From Candidatus Sericytochromatia bacterium (GTDB taxonomy: Bacteria; Cyanobacteriota; Sericytochromatia; S15B-MN24; JAQBPE01): a stretch of DNA of 64,000 nucleotides. The position numbers were made by a program, and so were the translations under genes. The stretch covers positions 10,910 through 74,909 of the forward strand of contig JAYKJB010000009.1 of NCBI GenBank assembly GCA_035285325.1, given 5' to 3'. Shown one piece after another: positions 39,281 through 58,727 of this stretch (positions are counted from its first letter, which is position 1; each line of letters begins with the position of its first letter). The notes beneath the pieces are model-generated. The model was given only the letters and a program-made list of their open reading frames with translations. It searched no databases and was not told where the DNA came from.

Positions 39281-39351
39281 GAGCCGGTGATGGGAATCGA
39301 ACCCACGCCCCAAGCTTGGGAAGCTCGTTTGCTACCATTACAACACACCGG
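39281..39351 (-). tRNA. tRNA-Gly (anticodon CCC)
   Basis: The reverse complement folds as a cloverleaf: acceptor stem GCCGGTG/CACCGGC, D-arm TTGT-AATGGTA-GCAA, anticodon stem-loop CGAGC-TTCCCAA-GCTTG, and a T-arm GTGGG-TTCGATT-CCCAT. No CCA is encoded. Confidence 0.85.
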
Positions 39352-39394
39352 CAGCGCGTGTTGGCGGTATTGTAGGCCGCCAGCCATCGTGGCG

Positions 39395-39988: not shown

Positions 39989-40062
<74 letters not shown>

Positions 40063-40209
40063 AAGCTATCGTAACAGCATGCGCCGCGGGTGTCAAAGCA
40101 CCGGATCACGAACCAGTTGGTGGGAATCGGACAACCGCGCCTCGCCCCGTTGGCTTGGGCCCCGCCGGAGCGGTGCCTGTCACGTGTGGCAGCGACGCGT
40201 TGGCTTACA

Positions 40210-40557
40210 ATGGAGCCCATGAAATACATGCTGGCTTCCTGGACCGCCGCGACCCTGGCCTTTTTCATCGCCGCTTACCTGGTCCCTGGCTTTACCGTCA
40301 GTGGCCTGGTGCCCGCGATGATCGGCGCGCTCGTGCTGGGCTTCGCCAATGCCGTGATCCGACCGATCATCGTGCTCTTCTCGATTCCCCTGACGTTCCT
40401 GACGCTGGGCCTGTTCCTGTTCGTGATCAACGGGGCCATGCTCTGGCTGGTGACCCTGGTGGTGCCCGGCGTCGCGGTCGCCCATTTCGGCTGGGCCATC
40501 CTGGCCGCCGCGGTGATCGCGGTCGTCAACTCGTTTTTCGGCCTGTTCCTGGGCTAG
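40210..40557 (+). CDS. DUF360 / phage-holin-4_2 superfamily membrane protein
   Basis: Four predicted TM helices. Family-like blocks YLVPGFTVSG and LGFANAVIRPIIVLFSIPLTFLTLGLFLFVINGAML. Confidence 0.55.
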   Translation: MEPMKYMLASWTAATLAFFIAAYLVPGFTVSGLVPAMIGALVLGFANAVIRPIIVLFSIPLTFLTLGLFLFVINGAMLWLVTLVVPGVAVAHFGWAILAAAVIAVVNSFFGLFLG

Positions 40558-48219: not shown

Positions 48220-48822
48220 ATGGAACACGACATTCTCGGCGCCAGGGTCCATACCCACGATGGCGAGGCGGGACGGGTCACGCGAATCGTGGTGAGCGCC
48301 GCCAAGCCCTGCGTCAGCCAGCTGGTCGTGCGCCGCCCCCCACCCGGCGAGCGGGAAGTGCTGGTGCCCACCTCCCTGATCGCCCTGACATGCGAGCAGA
48401 CGCTGTGGTTGGATTGCAGCCTGGCAGACCTCGCCAGCATGCCTGATTACGACGCCGACCGGTTTGAAGAAGCCAACCCCGCCTGGCCCGTGCCCGTGGC
48501 CTTGCCCTTCGGGGGAATCTGGTGGGCCCCTCATCTGGAAGCGCCCCACGCGGACGCGGGGGAGCAGCGCGGCCCCAAGGGACTGGAGGTGAGCCTCGTC
48601 CGGGGCACGCCCGTTACCTGCACGGATGGTGGCTGCGGCCGGATGGAGAACGTGCTGCTGGATGATGACAGTCACGCCCTGACCGCCCTCGTGATCCGGC
48701 AGGGGCTATTCTTTCCCCGCGACCTGGCAGCCCCGAGTGACTGGATCGATCACATGGACAACAGCGGAATCCACCTGAAGCTGAGCTGCCAGCAACTCGA
48801 TGAGCGTGCCGAATACTACTGA
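48220..48822 (+). CDS. PRC-barrel domain protein (two tandem PRC barrels)
   Basis: Two PRC-like blocks: ILGARVHTHDGEAGRVTRIVV and RGTPVTCTDGGCGRMENVLLDDDSHALTALVIRQG. The track ORF starts at 48175. Confidence 0.65.
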   Translation: MEHDILGARVHTHDGEAGRVTRIVVSAAKPCVSQLVVRRPPPGEREVLVPTSLIALTCEQTLWLDCSLADLASMPDYDADRFEEANPAWPVPVALPFGGIWWAPHLEAPHADAGEQRGPKGLEVSLVRGTPVTCTDGGCGRMENVLLDDDSHALTALVIRQGLFFPRDLAAPSDWIDHMDNSGIHLKLSCQQLDERAEYY

Positions 48823-48843
48823 GCCACCCGGTCATCCGCCCCT

Positions 48844-49695
48844 TCAGGCGCGATAGTTGCGGACGAGTACCTCGTTGACCGGCCCCCGCTTGCTCGCGTC
48901 ACGGTTGACCAGGCGAGGGGCCGCCACGATCTCCACCAAGTAATCCCGATACAACTCCTGAATGTAAGGGGTGTCGGAGTTGCTCAACATCACCTTGCAG
49001 CCTCGCAAGGAGAGCGTGCGGAATACCTCGGCCAGCTGGCGCTGATCCCGCGCATCGAAGGCCCCCGCCGTGTAGCCGGTGAAATTCGCCGTGCTGGAAA
49101 CCGGGTGATAGGGGGGATCGAAATAGATGAAGTCCCCGCGGCGGGCCCTCAACAGAACTTGCTCGTAACCCTGGTGTGCCAGCCCCGTGCCGCGCAAGGC
49201 CGCCGAGGCAGCCCGCAAGCCCACCTCGTTGCAGATCTGTGGATTCTTGTAGCGACCGAAGGGAACGTTGAAGGCGCCTCGCGAATTGACACGATACAGG
49301 CCGTTGAAGCAGGTCCGGTTGAGAAAGATCAGGCGCGAGGCGCGCTCGATGCCATCTAGCTGGCGCACATCGAGGGCGCGAATGGCGTAATAGTAATCCT
49401 CGTCCGCACGATGGCCCCGCAAATGGCGAATCAACCGCTCCACATCATCGCGAATGACCTGATAGGTGTGAACCAATTCCGCGTTTTCATCGGAAAGATG
49501 AGCCCGCACCGGTTGCAGCGCAAAAAACACCGCGCCGCCGCCAACGAATGGCTCGTGATAAGAATTAAAACGAGCTGGAAGACGCCCCGTAATCTGAGGC
49601 AATAATGATCGCTTCCCTCCAACCCATTTTACAAATGGTGCGGCATCAGGAATTCGAACTTGAATTGCTGAATTTTTGATTGCGGCTTGTGGCAT
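48844..49695 (-). CDS. Dam-family DNA N6-adenine methyltransferase (D12 class), orphan
   Basis: Motifs FVKWVGGKRSLL, EPFVGGGAVFF and FIYFDPPYHP (DPPY). The 5' ~250 nt of the gene is conspicuously AT-rich compared with the rest. Confidence 0.85.
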   Translation of the reverse strand: MPQAAIKNSAIQVRIPDAAPFVKWVGGKRSLLPQITGRLPARFNSYHEPFVGGGAVFFALQPVRAHLSDENAELVHTYQVIRDDVERLIRHLRGHRADEDYYYAIRALDVRQLDGIERASRLIFLNRTCFNGLYRVNSRGAFNVPFGRYKNPQICNEVGLRAASAALRGTGLAHQGYEQVLLRARRGDFIYFDPPYHPVSSTANFTGYTAGAFDARDQRQLAEVFRTLSLRGCKVMLSNSDTPYIQELYRDYLVEIVAAPRLVNRDASKRGPVNEVLVRNYRA

Positions 49696-49986
49696 AACGC
49701 CACTTTAATTACATAAGCCACCGGACTGCTGTACCTATTGTCACAAGGGCTTTCACATTTTTGACGAATGAATCACTGTGACCATTGCACAGATAAATAC
49801 AGTCAGTGATAGATTCACCAATGACTGATTTCGCCCCCCAGAAGCATCGATAACAAACATTATCTGGCAAGCAGAACACGAAGCGACCTTCCCGCCCATG
49901 CAGACCAGGTAATCATTGTTATATGGCCAAATCACCCGAGCGCGACGGCTTGGGCGTACAATGATGGCCCCGAAGGGAGGTTCCCC
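49696..49986. promoter_or_regulatory. AT-rich divergent control region (Dam MTase on one side, VOC/photolyase on the other) with palindromic operators
   Basis: By eye the region is close to 45% G+C. It contains the palindrome GATAAC-AAAC-ATTATC (49849-49864), the inverted repeat TGTCACA ... TGTGAC (49739-49782) and a TACAAT -10-like hexamer near 49957. Confidence 0.4.
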
Positions 49987-50355
49987 ATGTTTCTTCACGT
50001 GCGGCTCAAGGTTCGCGATATGGCGCGTGCGATCCAGTTTTACACGTCCCACCTGGGTTTCAGCCTGCGCGACAATGCCACGTCGCCCCGCGGTTCGCAA
50101 CTCGCTTTCCTGACCCACCCGGACAGCCCGACCGAACTGGAACTGGCCTACCTGCCCTGGGATCCCGACTTTCAGCTGCCGGAGGACATCTTTCATCTGG
50201 CGTTTTCGGTCCCACGGATGGACGAGGCGCTGGCCGCCTTGCGTGCGGCCGGTGTGAAGGTCACGGAGGAAGCCAGTCCCCGCCGGCACGGCGGTTTCAT
50301 GGCGTTCATCGAGGATCCGGACGGCTACGAGATCGAGCTGCTTTCGGAGGCCTGA
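49987..50355 (+). CDS. VOC-family (glyoxalase/bleomycin-resistance/dioxygenase fold) protein
   Basis: GGGAGG RBS. 122 aa, with the glyoxalase-like blocks MFLHVRLKVRDMARAIQFYTSHLGF...HLAFSV...GYEIELL. Confidence 0.8.
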   Translation: MFLHVRLKVRDMARAIQFYTSHLGFSLRDNATSPRGSQLAFLTHPDSPTELELAYLPWDPDFQLPEDIFHLAFSVPRMDEALAALRAAGVKVTEEASPRRHGGFMAFIEDPDGYEIELLSEA

Positions 50356-53704: not shown

Positions 53705-54946
53705 ATGCGTACCCGTTGGCTTCCCCTGGCCATGTGCTTGCTTCCCCTGACGGCCTGTGGCCTCGAGCCCGGCTCCTCGCGCGCAACCTTGCGAACCACC
53801 CAAGCGTCCCGTCCCGCCGGCGCCCCAGCGATCCAAGCGGCCACTCAGCCGGCCGCGGCCGGGCCGGGGCTGGACGCCGGGGCCCGTGTCCTCCCAGGCG
53901 TCAGGAGGGAGACGCCCTTTGTGGAGCCCGAAACGCCCGCCGAGCCGGACGAGAACAGCGCGGAAACCAGCGCAGGGGTAGACCCCGAAGCGGCCGGAGG
54001 AATTCAAGCGGAAGCCCCCGCGGCCCCCCGCGCCTACGCCGAGGTCGAGCGGACGGATGCCGCAGGGCGCGCCCTGACGGACCCGTTCACCGATTTGCAA
54101 GCTCCGGTCTACCTGACGCCGCGCCACTACCCCCTCATCCTGCCCGGTAGCCCGGCCCCCCTTCCCGCCTTCTCGCCCCGCCCGGTGGACGTGTCGAAAC
54201 TGCCCACGGACGCCATCGTGGAACTGGCCCGCTTGGGCCGCCTGCGACAACGTAGGCGCGGTGCCTTGGCCTGGCTGGTGGGTTACAGTTTTCCGAAGCT
54301 GACGGCGGAGGCGACGCGAGCCCGATTGGCTGCCGGCGGCTCCATCTGGCTGGCACCGAGCGGCAGTCACTGGCATCGTGACCGTGCTTACTCGGAGGTG
54401 AAGTCCGCGGCGGTGCTGGACGCCATGCTGGAGGACTTGCGTCGCGCGGCGCTGGATGCCGCCGCCCGCGTCGCCCGCGAAGCCAACATCGAGGGACGCA
54501 TGCTGCTGCTGCCGGCCTTCAACAACACCTTCGACGTCTACAAGTTGTGGCTGCTGGAGCGGGTCATCGACGGCTATTCCTTTGGTGGCGAACCGGTGCG
54601 GCGCGGGGTTGTCACGGCTGCCAGCCTGCATGAGCAACGCGAGGTGAGACGTCGCGTCGCCACCTACTGGGAGGACCACCCGGGTTGCACCGCCGGGGAG
54701 TTGCGCACGGTCACGACCAGTGCCCTCGTGTCACGCTTCGCTGACCTCGAGCGCAGTGCCGCCACGTATGCGGCCAATCCGGCGGCCTATCTCGACGTCC
54801 AATGCATTCCCGGCTTGCGCGACCCGCGGCCCGTGCTCAACGGCGATCGCCGCTGGTACGACACCGACGTGCGATACAACGAGGAGGCCATCCGCACCAT
54901 GTGTCAGTCCATGCCCCAGGTGCTGCGGAGCGCGGTCTACCCCTGA
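53705..54946 (+). CDS. hypothetical lipoprotein
   Basis: Lipoprotein signal MRTRWLPLAMCLLPLTAC. Ala/Pro/Glu-rich linker, then a globular domain with no recognised family. Confidence 0.6.
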   Translation: MRTRWLPLAMCLLPLTACGLEPGSSRATLRTTQASRPAGAPAIQAATQPAAAGPGLDAGARVLPGVRRETPFVEPETPAEPDENSAETSAGVDPEAAGGIQAEAPAAPRAYAEVERTDAAGRALTDPFTDLQAPVYLTPRHYPLILPGSPAPLPAFSPRPVDVSKLPTDAIVELARLGRLRQRRRGALAWLVGYSFPKLTAEATRARLAAGGSIWLAPSGSHWHRDRAYSEVKSAAVLDAMLEDLRRAALDAAARVAREANIEGRMLLLPAFNNTFDVYKLWLLERVIDGYSFGGEPVRRGVVTAASLHEQREVRRRVATYWEDHPGCTAGELRTVTTSALVSRFADLERSAATYAANPAAYLDVQCIPGLRDPRPVLNGDRRWYDTDVRYNEEAIRTMCQSMPQVLRSAVYP

Positions 54947-55008
54947 CGCCTCCCCGGGCGGTCTGGCTGAACGGCCCTGCCCCGTGCAGGGCACCCGAGC
55001 ATTTTCAC

Positions 55009-55170
55009 GATAATAGGTATTATCCAGCCGGGCGCAACCTCTCAACGGTAGATTGCGGGTTTCCAGCCTTTCACCCCAGATAATGCGAGCACACCTCGCC
55101 CGCCCAGGGGGCCACCCTCCAGATAATGGAAGGCCCGTCGCGGGCTGGCCTGGTTTTGATTCAGATAATC
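55009..55170. promoter_or_regulatory. Fur-box-like GATAAT repeat array in a convergent intergenic region
   Basis: Palindrome GATAAT-AGGT-ATTATC at 55009-55024. Three direct CAGATAAT(G/C) copies start at 55077, 55120 and 55162, spaced 43 and 42 nt apart. A GC hairpin followed by TTTTCTTTC lies near 55184-55250. Confidence 0.45.
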
Positions 55171-55270
55171 GGGCCTGCCAAAGGAGGGCGAACAGGGGCA
55201 GGTCGATGATGGCGCCGAAGCCCTCACCCTCCTGAACGGTTTTCTTTCATAACGCCAGGATCTGTCGCGT

Positions 55271-55915
55271 TCAGCGCCGCACGATGTCATTGGCGGAATA
55301 CTGCCCGGCCTCCTCGACCCGCAGGACCACCGCCTCCATGGCCTCTTTGGCGCCGCGCGTCCGCGCACAGGCGATGCTCTCCTCGATCGGGCAGGTGAAC
55401 CCCACGAACAGACGCGTGGGAGCGCCCTTGGCGCGTGGCCGGAAGGGCCGGACCGTGTGCAAGCAGTCCGGATTCGCACAGGCGATCTCGACGGCCATCA
55501 GCCGCTCGGCCTCCGCCAGCGAGGCCACGCGCGCCTCCAAACGCCGCCGGGTGCCGCCCCGCACGAGGCGATCGCCCTCGTAGGCATTCACGTAGAGGTT
55601 GGGCAGGATCCCCTGCTCGAAGTCTGGATGCACCAGCAGGTTGCGTGGCACGCGGCGATCGCCGATCAGGCTATCCATCCGTCGCTGCTGGTGGCCCAGA
55701 AAGGCCACCAGCGACTCCCACGACGCCCGCCCGACCATCTGACCGTCCCGGACGAGCTGAACGCCCTGAGGTCCTACGCGCAGGGTAAAGGTCTCACCAT
55801 TGGCGTGAACCCACATGGCCCCCTCACCCAGTCGCTCGAGCAAGGCAGACTGCACCAGTGGTCGGGTCGAATCCAACATCATGGACTCCTCTCGAAAAAC
55901 GTCAGGGGCACCCAC
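55271..55915 (-). CDS. hypothetical protein with C-terminal 4-Cys zinc-ribbon-like motif
   Basis: 214-aa ORF with CANPDC ... CPIEESIAC near the C-terminus. No recognised family. The start may be at the internal MMLDSTRP. Confidence 0.45.
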   Translation of the reverse strand: MGAPDVFREESMMLDSTRPLVQSALLERLGEGAMWVHANGETFTLRVGPQGVQLVRDGQMVGRASWESLVAFLGHQQRRMDSLIGDRRVPRNLLVHPDFEQGILPNLYVNAYEGDRLVRGGTRRRLEARVASLAEAERLMAVEIACANPDCLHTVRPFRPRAKGAPTRLFVGFTCPIEESIACARTRGAKEAMEAVVLRVEEAGQYSANDIVRR

Positions 55916-56151
55916 GCACGCGTGGCGCGGAGGGGAGGGGGAGATGAAGACCGGTCCTCACTATACCCCAGCCGGATCCGGGGGTCGATCCCCAGTGTCC
56001 GCGCCCGGCCAATGGTCCAGCTCAGGCCAGCGCCTCGATGCTTGAAAAACCCGCCCCGGTTCGAGGGTTCCGGACATCCCCACAGCGGGTGTGGAACCCG
56101 CACTTCTGAGGAATATGGAACTTGTGGCCTCGCCCCTGAGGGAGATTCCGG

Positions 56152-57576
56152 TTGGCCTCCGAGATTCAGCCCAATCGCCCCACGGGGAAGGTGCCCGGCG
56201 GCTTGCCGAGCTCCGACTCCGTTCATATGAACACCCGAGGCGGTAACGGCCGGGGTGGCGGACGCCGTCGCCAAAACCCGGACGACGAGCCGGAGGAGGG
56301 CCCCGCCTCCAGTGAGGAGGAAGGCAAGCTCGAGGCGGATTCCTTTCTGGGGGCCAGTGCCTCGTCCCAGATGGCCCAGCTGTTCTCCGAAGCCCTGCCG
56401 TGGGAAGGGGCGCAGGCCGAGCCCGCTCCCCACCCGCCGCAAGGGCGCACGCCAGGCCCACGCCTGAAGGGTGCGACGCCCTTGCCCCCCAGGACGACCA
56501 AGCTCTCGAACCCGGGAGCTCAGGGCTCGAGCGCGGGCCAGGGCGACACGGACCTGGCACACATCCGGATTCCGGAGGCCCCCACCGCCAGAAGGACGCC
56601 CCTCGCTCCGCTGGTTCCTCCCGGCAGCGGACGCCGCGTCGATGCCCACTTCGATCCCACGGCGGCGCTCAACCAGACCATCCTGGCGCAGCAGGAGCTG
56701 CAAAATCGAAAGCAGGAAGCGCCGCCTCCCTCCGTCACTCCGGTCCTGCCATCCCAGCAAGGGGCAACGGAAATCTCGCGTTTGCTGCGACAGCCCACCC
56801 CCTCCGTGGCGCCGGTCGTGCCGCCACTGGAGGCCGAACCGTTCGTGGGACCGGTGCTGCCCACCGAAGTTCCAGACCAGAGCGAGGTCGGGGCGGGAGC
56901 CGCCACAGTTCCGGAGGCGAACCGCTCCCCCATTCCCCCGCCGCCTGCCCCCTCGGGGGGCCCCGCCCGTTCTCCCCTGCCCTCGCGTCCCGTGCCTCCC
57001 CCGGCGGCGGACCCGCGCCGCCCTGCCCCCGTCGCGCCCCCGCCGCCGGCAAACCACGCGCCCGGCGAAGGCCTCTCCGCGGCGCACGCCACGCCCGGCG
57101 GGGCACCTGAACGCCCACGCGCCCCCACGTTGCCGAATGCCCCAGAGGCCAAGGGAATCGCCGCGCGCTCCCCGGAGCGACCCCGCCTTTCCGCGCTCTC
57201 GGATGCGATCGAGGCACTCCCCGTGCTGACGGCCGCTCCCCCCCAGGCGGCCCCCCCTCATTCGGAACCACAAGCTCCGGCCAAGGCCGGAGGTCCGGCG
57301 TCGAGCGGACGCGCCGCCTGCATGTACCGGGTGGTGGACCTGCTGACGGACATCCCCGTTGCGCGGGCCCGGATCGAGATTGAGCCCCTGCACGATGACC
57401 TGCTGCCTGTCATCAACGGTCAGACCGACAGCGATGGATGGTTCAGGCAGTCGGACATTCCCCCCGGGGAGTATCGCGTGGCGGTTCGGGCAGCGGGCTA
57501 TGTCCCCGTCTACAAGGAACGTGGCCTGGCACCATCGAGCATCGATGACCTGGCGATATTTCTCGCAAAGCCGTGA
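56152..57576 (+). CDS. proline-rich protein with C-terminal carboxypeptidase-regulatory-like (transthyretin-like) domain
   Basis: TTG start with a GAGGGAG RBS. About 380 aa of Pro/Ala-rich low complexity are followed by ACMYRVVDLLTDIPVARARIEIEPL...GQTDSDGWFRQSDIPPGEYRVAVRAAGYVPV. No signal peptide. Confidence 0.5.
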   Translation: MASEIQPNRPTGKVPGGLPSSDSVHMNTRGGNGRGGGRRRQNPDDEPEEGPASSEEEGKLEADSFLGASASSQMAQLFSEALPWEGAQAEPAPHPPQGRTPGPRLKGATPLPPRTTKLSNPGAQGSSAGQGDTDLAHIRIPEAPTARRTPLAPLVPPGSGRRVDAHFDPTAALNQTILAQQELQNRKQEAPPPSVTPVLPSQQGATEISRLLRQPTPSVAPVVPPLEAEPFVGPVLPTEVPDQSEVGAGAATVPEANRSPIPPPPAPSGGPARSPLPSRPVPPPAADPRRPAPVAPPPPANHAPGEGLSAAHATPGGAPERPRAPTLPNAPEAKGIAARSPERPRLSALSDAIEALPVLTAAPPQAAPPHSEPQAPAKAGGPASSGRAACMYRVVDLLTDIPVARARIEIEPLHDDLLPVINGQTDSDGWFRQSDIPPGEYRVAVRAAGYVPVYKERGLAPSSIDDLAIFLAKP

Positions 57577-57989
57577 GGCGTTCGCAGACAGCGCGGCTCG
57601 GGAGCGTTTCAGACGAACCATGACTCTCTGGCAAGGCGCAGGGGGACGCCCTGCTCGACGTCCCTCTGCGACGAGCGGCGTTGCCATCCACGCGCAGCGT
57701 CCGCGATGTTGGCCGTGCTCATCGCCACCCCGCGATGAGGCCTTGATCACAACATAAGCTTTTCCTGATCTGAAGTTTGTATCTCGCAGCAGGTCCTGCG
57801 GAATATTCCGTTCGAGCCTGCAAAGTCGCGTGATGCTTGCACAATGTGAAACTGACGGCCCTTCCGCTTCACAATACATTACAATAATTACCACTGCTTC
57901 ACAAAAGTTGACTGGAAGTGATTTTCGCGATCCGATACGATCATCCTTGGCTTGGAAACCAACCTCCCAAACTCACGAAGGAGACCTGA

Positions 57990-58727
57990 ATGAACAAGGT
58001 GTACGCCGGCGCGAGTCCGAAGGAGAAGGAAAAACTCGTCAACGAGTATCTGCCTCTCGTCCACAAGATCGCGCGGGGCCTTGCTCGTCGTAGCACCGAC
58101 CCGGTGGATGACCTGATTCAGGTGGGTTCGATCGGGTTGCTCGAAGCGATCAATCGCTATGAGACCGGTCACAACACGGAATTCAAGACCTACGCGGTCC
58201 ATTTCATCACGGGCCACATCCGGCACTATCTGCGGGACAGGCAGACCCTGGTGCGGGGCCCGCGCGCCCTCCAGGAACTCTCCTACCGCTTGCGGCAAGT
58301 CACCCAGGAACTGGGTCACCGCTTGGGACGCGAAGCGACGAACCAGGAACTGGCCGACACGCTCAACGTTTCGACGGACCTGATTGACCAGGCCCGCGTG
58401 TACGACCGCCGCGTCACCGTGATGTGGCTCGACCAGGAGACCGGCGACGGCGAGGAAGACGAACAACGCTCGTTGCTCAACACCCTGGCTGATCCGACCA
58501 CCAGCAACGCGCATCAAAACGAGCGAGATGAACGCTTGGTGCTGACGGAAGCCATGAAGCACCTGCCCGACCACCAGCGCGAGTTGCTTCAGATGCGTTA
58601 CTTCGACGACCTGACCCAAGCGGAACTCAGCCGTCGTCTGGGCATCAGCCAGATGGAAGTCTGTCGGCGGCTGAAGAAGGCCGAAAAAGGACTGCGGCTG
58701 ATCGTCTCCAACGCGCCGGCGCGCTGA
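57990..58727 (+). CDS. RNA polymerase sigma factor, sigma-70 family group 3 (SigB/SigF-like)
   Basis: GAAGGAG RBS. Region 2 DLIQVGSIGLLEAINRYETGHNTEFKTYAVHFITGHIRHYLRD and region 4 LTQAELSRRLGISQMEVCRRLKKA. 245 aa. Confidence 0.85.
   Translation: MNKVYAGASPKEKEKLVNEYLPLVHKIARGLARRSTDPVDDLIQVGSIGLLEAINRYETGHNTEFKTYAVHFITGHIRHYLRDRQTLVRGPRALQELSYRLRQVTQELGHRLGREATNQELADTLNVSTDLIDQARVYDRRVTVMWLDQETGDGEEDEQRSLLNTLADPTTSNAHQNERDERLVLTEAMKHLPDHQRELLQMRYFDDLTQAELSRRLGISQMEVCRRLKKAEKGLRLIVSNAPAR

Follow-up and report, generated by a model that had tools for sequence, protein, structure and literature searches.

What purpose is served by a 324-bp gap between the 3' ends of two convergent genes, when that gap holds a palindrome and a series of evenly spaced direct repeats? 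The question is raised by a 64,000-nucleotide stretch of DNA from a Candidatus Sericytochromatia bacterium (contig JAYKJB010000009.1, positions 10,910 to 74,909; this whole stretch is called the window here), in which the gap separates a gene for a lipoprotein-like protein from a gene for a 202-amino-acid (202-aa) protein. An earlier note on the locus, made from the letters alone, described the motifs of the gap, all of which are present, and interpreted them as a Fur-family operator array serving a metal-regulated small RNA (sRNA). The analysis reported here leads elsewhere: the palindrome and repeats are parts of an element conserved in 12 loci, which has about an even chance (roughly 0.5) of being a clade-specific, multi-site docking array, or operator, for one sequence-specific DNA-binding protein acting by a looped-operator mechanism.

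The window has a GC content of 65%, and the exact sequence GATAAT-N4-ATTATC is found in it only once, as the 6-4-6 palindrome P1, whose left arm (55009-55014) reads GATAAT on the plus strand; a single relative with one mismatch lies at 49849-49864. Copies of the 8-mer CAGATAAT begin at 55077, 55120, and 55162 and are thus 43 and 42 bp apart. There are four copies of this 8-mer in the window versus 0.28 expected, a number reached in none of 100 shuffles; the fourth copy is part of the one-mismatch palindrome. Coordinates of these and other features are collected in Table 1.

Related loci were gathered by a protein-alignment (A1) scan of genome contigs, a scan of metagenome contigs, and exact-protein look-ups. 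The same element is found in 12 loci, the window and 11 further contigs; the adjoining 202-aa proteins are 65-80% identical to one another, and the loci therefore represent distinct species or genera. In all 12 the element shares its strand with the 202-aa gene (the minus strand of the window), and its parts keep a constant order. Read on that strand and numbered from the TTATC in the right arm of the palindrome (position 0), the element consists of a degenerate half-site R0, (G/A)TTATG, at about -238; R1, RTTATCYGG, at -155; R2, GTTATCTGGA, at -113; R3, also GTTATCTGGA, at -70/-71; a block, AAACCCGCAT-N5-CCGT, followed by about 20 variable bases; and the palindrome, with the consensus CCAGATAA(K)NNNN(A)TTATCTGG, i.e., GATAA-N6-TTATC. 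A pyrimidine-rich prefix (CTTCC, CCTCC, or CTCC) precedes R2 or R3 in many loci. Spacings across loci are 81-84 bp for R0-R1 (all nine long-form loci), 42-43 bp for R1-R2, 42-43 bp for R2-R3 (31 bp in one clade), and 69-71 bp for R3 to the palindrome. Mean pairwise identity is 91% for the R3 10-mer over the 12 loci and 80% for the R2 10-mer; R1 is present in nine loci, and the block core AAACCCGC, with positions that are invariant or at least 90% conserved, is intact in eight.

Two clades vary this plan. The short form (L008, L139, and L140) consists of R2, R3, block, and palindrome only; the element and flanks of these three loci, but not of the others, are also rich in HIP1-like GCGATCGC octamers, including one placed directly after R3 (CTGGATCGCGATCG). 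In the second clade (L004, L012, and L013) R2 and R3 are 31 instead of 42 bp apart, and an extra palindrome with the usual arms is found 69 bp beyond the first. Both arms of the first palindrome have changed in this clade, to TTTCATTGATAAT/ATTATCAATGAAA, forming a 13-bp perfect inverted repeat (L004:3851-3880, L012:3357-3386, L013:1841-1870); this joint change suggests that a hairpin or cruciform, or else a second specificity, is involved. For the core, about 130 bp long, a sequence-only covariance model finds exactly one match in each element-bearing locus (55003-55102 on the minus strand of the window) and none in loci without the element. The GC content of the element ranges from 0.49 to 0.70. 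Because repeats and palindrome keep their positions and spacings in 11 further contigs, they are functional and not a chance arrangement; to judge from this conservation, the element is under strong selection. The earlier note's description of an operator-like array with no obvious gene to serve, built from a palindrome and three phased direct repeats, has thus held up well: the palindrome occupies the same relative position in all 12 loci, the repeat spacings are conserved, and the half-site occurs both inverted and as phased direct copies.

Whether such an element works as DNA or as RNA can be approached through its spacers. Those between R1 and R2 and between R2 and R3 have mean pairwise identities of 33 and 30%, compared with 29 and 27% for shuffled sequences; their length is 29-30 nt in all loci or, in the 31-bp clade, 18 nt (11 nt less, about one helical turn). 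The spacings of 31 and 42-43 bp are within 1 bp of three or four turns of B-DNA, and that of R0-R1 (81-84 bp) is within about 3 bp of eight. Selection on the length and phase of a spacer, and not on its sequence, is what a constraint on DNA geometry predicts. In addition, the half-site TTATC(T/C)GG is used in both senses, direct and inverted, which argues for one protein reading duplex DNA, since an inverted copy in RNA would be the complement and not the motif. It is probable that the element works at the DNA level.

RNA structure gives no competing signal. Rfam 15, at gathering thresholds, matches only two tRNAs in the window, both located elsewhere (39282-39352 and 39989-40062, minus strand; a gene for a Phage_holin_4_2 family membrane protein, 40090-40557 on the plus strand, adjoins them), and a permissive Rfam scan of 54700-55500 returns two chance-level matches outside the element. 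The element is not a member of a described RNA family. RNAalifold pairs only the palindrome, at -6.2 kcal/mol on the minus strand and -3.2 kcal/mol on the plus strand, where covariation is unfavorable; the covariation terms of the two strands are -0.16 and +0.92 kcal/mol, with no favorable covariation. On either strand, the mean folding z-score of each spacer class falls between -0.8 and +0.4. A structured RNA is rejected, given the lack of any fold beyond the palindrome and of excess stability in spacers or hairpins.

The repeats could still act in RNA if a non-coding transcript ran through the array as a protein sponge or as a set of repeated seed sites, with units of UCCAGAUAAYGGRAGG on the plus strand or CCUUCCCGUUAUCUGGA on the minus strand and with the palindrome as its regulated promoter. 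Such a transcript would make sense of the Shine-Dalgarno-like (GGGAAGG) or anti-Shine-Dalgarno-like (CCUUCC) extensions of the repeats, of the palindrome hexamer facing the plus strand (NATAAT in 12 of 12 loci), and of two loci (L005 and L140) in which the element is a stand-alone unit beginning beyond the upstream gene's intrinsic terminator. It would leave the spacings of 31 and 42 bp, which differ by about one turn of DNA, without a reason to be kept, as it would the inverted copy of the motif; no Rfam family, consensus structure, covariation on either strand, or conserved terminator accompanies it, spacer z-scores are near zero, and the window hairpin with its T-tract is at chance level. 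This explanation is considered quite unlikely.

Coding explanations fail as well. The earlier note had argued against coding in the 60-aa open reading frame (ORF) at 55053-55235 from the inconstant codon phase of the repeats, an argument that is sound: the three CAGATAAT repeats lie in phases 0, 1, and 1, and neither start codon nor frame is conserved. A small protein with 14-residue repeats was also considered. Read on the plus strand, the conserved block includes ATGCGGGTTT, and in the ORF from its ATG the repeats of L003, L137, and L138 read PDNG at 14-residue intervals. This protein is rejected because the ATG is gone in five of the 12 loci, because the repeats read QIT or KIT in L005 and L006, where R3 is 1 nt nearer to or farther from the block, and because the frame is not kept across spacings of 43 and 31 bp.

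Promoter signals center on the palindrome. With a sigma-70 weight matrix the best -10 element falls repeatedly on the palindrome arms. The hexamer facing the plus strand of the window is TATAAT in L003 and L137, and the oppositely facing hexamer is GATAAG in seven of 12 loci; this asymmetry between NATAAT and GATAAG speaks modestly for initiation towards the repeats, the orientation assumed in the earlier note. No -35 element, extended -10 element, or far-end terminator is conserved across the loci. The palindrome may give rise to a regulated non-coding transcript. Sigma-54 and extracytoplasmic function (ECF) sigma factor promoter readings of the AAACCCGC block were rejected on inspection, as the spacing does not fit.

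From this combination of symmetric site, half-sites, and phase, we infer protein binding, cooperativity, and possibly promoter activity. A dimer of the DNA-binding protein would occupy the palindrome as CCAGATAA-N6-TTATCTGG, and further copies of the protein would occupy the two to four same-sense half-sites GTTATCTGGA. As the half-sites are whole helical turns apart (31, 42/43, and about 84 bp), the bound proteins would lie on one face of the DNA, where they might cooperate by looping or wrapping. The palindrome arms resemble -10 hexamers (GATAAT/TATAAT), so that the most likely output would be occupancy-dependent control of initiation at the palindrome. Initiation towards the repeats, on the plus strand of the window, would yield an unannotated non-coding transcript; in the other direction, in relatives with a suitably placed following gene, it would be directed towards that gene.

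Several observations weigh against a docking array of this kind. A regulator gene adjoining the element was not found among the Pfam-scanned window genes (about 37 of the 51 called, including all between 40 and 61 kb), and no binding protein was identified. The following gene is convergent, and hence no obvious target, in seven of the 11 loci in which it is readable. The -35 region is not conserved and a scan for consensus promoters is blank. The palindrome is out of simple helical phase with R3 (about 65 bp center to center), and the change of both first-palindrome arms to TTATCAATGAAA in one clade is easier to reconcile with a hairpin or with a second protein than with one fixed specificity.

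Further information comes from solitary palindromes. Relaxed searches of the window and the collected loci find the palindrome outside the element only twice, once in the window and once in L138 (Table 1). The two copies are nearly identical, GATAACAAA(C/G)(A/G)TTATCTGG, and come from unrelated promoter regions of two genomes; about 0.006 palindromes per 64 kb are expected by chance (our own estimate from base composition). They lie 5 kb from the element in the window and 1.9 kb from it in L138, and their centers are unlike that of the element's palindrome. The presence of such sites in promoter regions points to a trans-acting factor with other targets, for which a transcription factor fits better than a recombinase; the solitary palindromes may be regulon members of the same DNA-binding protein. 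The palindrome in the window is flanked by genes for a D12-class (Dam-like) N6-adenine methyltransferase (48844-49695, minus strand) and a glyoxalase (from 49987, plus strand). The methyltransferase gene is an orphan, no adjoining restriction partner being seen, and the surrounding 1.1-kb patch (48822-49987) has a GC content of 0.55 compared with 0.65; the gene may have been acquired horizontally.

The identity of the protein was addressed in the earlier note by appeal to the Fur family (Fur, Zur, and PerR), with a metal-responsive sRNA of the RyhB/PrrF type under the control of the array. GATAAT hexamers do occur in both orientations, and the half-site TGATAAT/ATTATCA in the first palindrome of L004, L012, and L013 is identical to a Fur 7-mer half-site. 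The geometry is different: Fur sites are 7-1-7 (TGATAATnATTATCA) or 6-1-6 units, with three or more contiguous hexamers or with overlaps at offsets of 3 or 6 bp (PMC2189734). In all 12 loci the palindrome has N4 in place of N1 (6-4-6 or 7-4-7), there are no contiguous sites or sites overlapping at a 6-bp offset, and the other hexamers are isolated, 31-84 bp apart; a 7-1-7 scan allowing up to three mismatches finds no site in the element. Neither Fur-family genes nor genes for iron or zinc uptake or storage are present among the Pfam-scanned window genes or the genes called in related loci, and known iron-responsive sRNAs give no Rfam match. The element is not a Fur box. The Rfam check and the comparative alignment that the earlier note had proposed for its sRNA yielded no family match and no conserved RNA structure, and a Fur-controlled sRNA at this locus is very improbable.

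Neither of the two hairpins of the gap exceeds shuffled sequence in stability. A 7-bp GC hairpin is present after the stop codon of the 413-aa gene, about 3 nt from where the earlier note had placed it; it is outside the conserved element, has z = -0.99 against dinucleotide shuffles, and has no counterpart in relatives, whose neighboring gene differs. It may be a weak terminator of the 413-aa gene. The longer GC-rich inverted repeat at 55182-55233, followed by TTTTCTTTC, is likewise present, but the terminator role assigned to it is not supported: z is -0.02 on the plus strand and -0.84 on the minus strand, the R0-R1 spacers of relatives have mean folding z-scores of -0.62 and +0.19, and the inverted repeat is not a conserved feature. 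A promoter and terminator scan of the gap finds no consensus sigma-70 promoter and no terminator, and calls neither hairpin terminator-like.

Table 1. Features of the gap and its flanks, with the solitary palindromes found outside the element (window coordinates unless a locus is named).
Feature	Position	Strand	Remarks
413-aa gene	53705-54946	+	413 aa, lipoprotein-like N-terminus
GC hairpin GCCCTGC/GCAGGGC	54974-54992	+	7 bp; 3' of the stop of the 413-aa gene
Palindrome P1 GATAATAGGTATTATC	55009-55024		GATAAT-AGGT-ATTATC = GATAA-N6-TTATC; distal boundary of the conserved element
Conserved block	55045-55064	-	Reads GGAAACCCGCAATCTACCGT; between R3 and palindrome
Half-site R3 ATTATCTGGG	55075-55084	-	TTATC 70 bp ahead of the right-arm TTATC of the palindrome; CAGATAAT at 55077
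Half-site R2 CCTTCC-ATTATCTGGA	55118-55133	-	43 bp from R3; CAGATAAT at 55120
Half-site R1 GATTATCTGAA	55160-55170	-	42 bp from R2; CAGATAAT at 55162
Imperfect GC-rich inverted repeat AGGAGGGCGA / TCACCCTCCT	55182-55191 / 55224-55233		Within the R0-R1 spacer; arms 90% complementary
Degenerate half-site R0 GTTATGAAA	55245-55253	-	84 bp from R1; proximal boundary of the element
202-aa gene	55271-55879 (or to 55915, 214 aa)	-	3' end faces the gap; converges with the 413-aa gene
Solitary palindrome GATAACAAACATTATCTGG, GATAAC-AAAC-ATTATC-TGG	49849-49867		AT-rich divergent gap between methylase and glyoxalase genes
Solitary palindrome GATAACAAAGGTTATCTGG	L138:946-964		About 155 bp upstream of the 202-aa gene

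The element is found directly downstream of the 202-aa gene or separated from it by one or two genes, usually a gene for a DUF6935 lipoprotein; in L006 the intervening genes are others. It is not the 3' untranslated region of the 202-aa gene, because in L003, L005, L137, L138, and L140 the DUF6935 lipoprotein gene with its own terminator (a clear intrinsic terminator in L005 and L140) intervenes and the element is intact. At least two lineages (L007/L011 and L009/L016) keep the 202-aa gene with no element within 2.5-3 kb. Beyond the palindrome, the following gene is convergent in seven loci and co-directional in four, where it starts 22-180 bp past the palindrome; among these 11 loci only one pair, L012 and L013, shares a downstream orthologue, and L008 and L139 have histidine kinase genes in opposite orientations. 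As these downstream genes are mostly unrelated, the palindrome marks the end of a conserved synteny block, and the element is not the promoter of a conserved downstream gene. The scanned neighborhood consists of chromosomal housekeeping genes. A 413-bp intergenic region with a GC content of 0.52-0.54 (57577-57989) lies upstream of a gene for a group-3-type sigma factor (57990-58727).

The 202-aa protein is basic and restricted to this clade, with 45 homologues; the few named sources are Candidatus Sericytochromatia or unclassified cyanobacterial metagenome-assembled genomes, and the others are metagenome assemblies. Its invariant residues are C134, C139, H141, C163, and C171, together with many arginines. 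No sequence match was found in Pfam, NCBIfam, or PDB, and a Foldseek comparison of its AlphaFold2 model (predicted local distance difference test score 82.7) with PDB finds no relative, the best E-value being 0.7. It is a candidate binder of the array. Autoregulation of its gene is rejected, given that a palindrome stands upstream of the gene in L138 only. Upstream of the gene there is a conserved TATAGT -10 element (TGTATAGT in L138), and the gene is divergent from one for a proline-rich protein with a C-terminal CarboxypepD_reg domain (55880-56151, 56152-57576, plus strand), a synteny also seen in L012, L014, L016, L139, and L140.

The place of the element beside the 202-aa gene invites a reading in which the encoded protein binds it as a centromere-like or titration site, by analogy to parB-parS and sopB-sopC, whose sites are located immediately downstream of the genes for the proteins that bind them. 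The sopC units of F are 43 bp long, recalling the 42-43 bp period of the element, and the element is downstream of the 202-aa gene and on the same strand in all 12 loci, with an additional palindrome upstream of the gene in L138; the basic character of the protein and its invariant Cys/His cluster would suit a DNA-binding role. On the other hand, the protein has no recognizable DNA-binding domain or structural relative, no partner ATPase is found, in L140 a further gene stands between the 202-aa gene and the element, and at least two lineages keep the gene without a nearby element. A site of this type is improbable.

A second role in chromosome maintenance is that of a site for site-specific recombination, in which the palindrome would be the core for a tyrosine recombinase (two inverted arms with a 6-bp overlap, as in dif) and the same-sense repeats would act as accessory sites conferring selectivity on resolution. 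Such a site could serve the clade in chromosome-dimer resolution or in the integration of an island. The center of E. coli dif is ATAAT-N4-ATTAT, and integron attI has accessory binding sites beside the recombination core. The same center is found in the palindrome and in the proposed dif of Frankia, CACGCCGATAATGCACATTATGTCAAGT; dif has not been found in Cyanobacteria (PMC3025954). An inverted core with two direct motifs of the same sequence on one side also matches the Tn4430 IRS, which is 116 bp long and consists of IR1-IR2 with a 4-bp spacer plus DR1 and DR2 (PMC2847244). All loci have inverted arms around a short center and two to four same-sense half-sites on one side only, and synteny breaks exactly past the palindrome. 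Neither an adjoining recombinase gene nor a terminus location with a conserved XerD arm goes with them: no recombinase gene is present among the Pfam-scanned window genes or the genes called in related loci, there is no GC-skew turning point or switch of gene orientation here, and the outer arm positions are poorly conserved, unlike the conserved XerD arm TTATGTnAAnT. The solitary palindromes, 5 and 1.9 kb away, would risk deletions, and their centers differ. A recombination site is quite unlikely. The broader view that the element serves chromosome maintenance and is not an operator, as either a dif-like or island-integration site with an Xer-type core made self-sufficient by its accessory repeats or a centromere-like site for the 202-aa protein, is unlikely.

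Other roles in replication or mobility can be set aside. An origin or terminus of replication is rejected, there being no GC-skew turning point and no switch of gene orientation here. The DnaA box is TTATCCACA, from which the half-site in its commonest form, TTATCTGGA, differs at three of nine positions (6, 7, and 8) and the variant TTATCCGGA at positions 7 and 8. An origin of the iteron type, with tandem iterons of 17-22 bp, is rejected on the period of 31-43 bp, the GC content of the element, and the lack of a rep gene. There are no integrase, transposase, or rep genes among the Pfam-scanned window genes or the genes called in related loci. Mobile DNA is rejected because BLAST finds no plasmid or phage match and a pattern scan of viral contigs gives only chance matches, none with the palindrome. 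A multi-copy repeat or mobile-element remnant, such as a miniature inverted-repeat transposable element (MITE) or a repetitive extragenic palindromic (REP) sequence, is made unlikely by the single core-model copy in the window and the lack of copies in element-less loci, as is the degenerate remnant that the earlier note had named as an alternative to its own proposal.

The Sericytochromatia are uncultured, non-photosynthetic relatives of the Cyanobacteria, and their regulation and chromosome biology are almost unknown. The element provides a testable handle on both, with a core of about 130 bp that is usable as bait for the binding protein, a defined half-site GTTATCTGGA, and strict spacing rules with drifted spacers. 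More generally, conservation of spacing without conservation of sequence can separate elements that work at the DNA level from those that work at the RNA level. As an operator array, the element would amount to a new regulon motif, tidy but ordinary; if it is a recombination or segregation site, it would bear on the unresolved dif question in the cyanobacterial lineage.

Among known systems, Fur boxes and Fur-regulated sRNAs resemble the element in having GATAAT/ATTATC in both orientations and an overlap with a -10-like sequence; they differ from it in the N1 spacing of the palindrome and in contiguous arrays, and RyhB and PrrF differ in sRNA family, structure, terminator, and nearby metal genes, none of which is seen here. 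The operators that combine iterons and inverted repeats in pSC101 and pPS10 place one or two inverted repeats, in which part of the repeat sequence recurs, after their direct repeats; these direct repeats, like those of the element, have a 5' extension (CTTCC in the element) that the inverted arms lack. Their period is about 22 bp whereas that of the element is 42 bp, and the element has no rep gene, AT-rich unwinding region, or DnaA boxes and is in a chromosomal housekeeping context; iteron origins and centromeres share the logic of repeats plus palindrome, but their period, partner genes, and composition do not match. The Tn4430 IRS and attI share with the element an inverted pair with a 4-bp spacer, direct copies on one side, and, for the short form, a length of about 116-130 bp; here, there is no adjoining recombinase, the direct repeats are 42 bp apart, the site is chromosomal and syntenic in many species, and solitary palindromes are found in promoters. 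With dif/Xer the element shares the ATAAT-N4-ATTAT center, the 5-6-5 inner geometry, and a non-coding location at a synteny break; unlike dif, it has variable outer arms that are not XerD-like, about 240 bp of one-sided repeats, no skew switch, and a copy number that is not demonstrably one.

The comparison that accords with a docking array is that with multi-operator arrays that have phased auxiliary sites, such as gal OE/OI, lac O1-O3, deo, and the Lrp sites at pap and ilvIH. The element differs from these in that its auxiliary sites are single half-sites in one orientation that recur regularly about every 42 bp (every 31 bp in one clade), located mostly between convergent genes. Like them, it has one presumably high-affinity symmetric site at a -10-like sequence and extra sites at whole helical turns, with the length of the spacers fixed and their sequence free.

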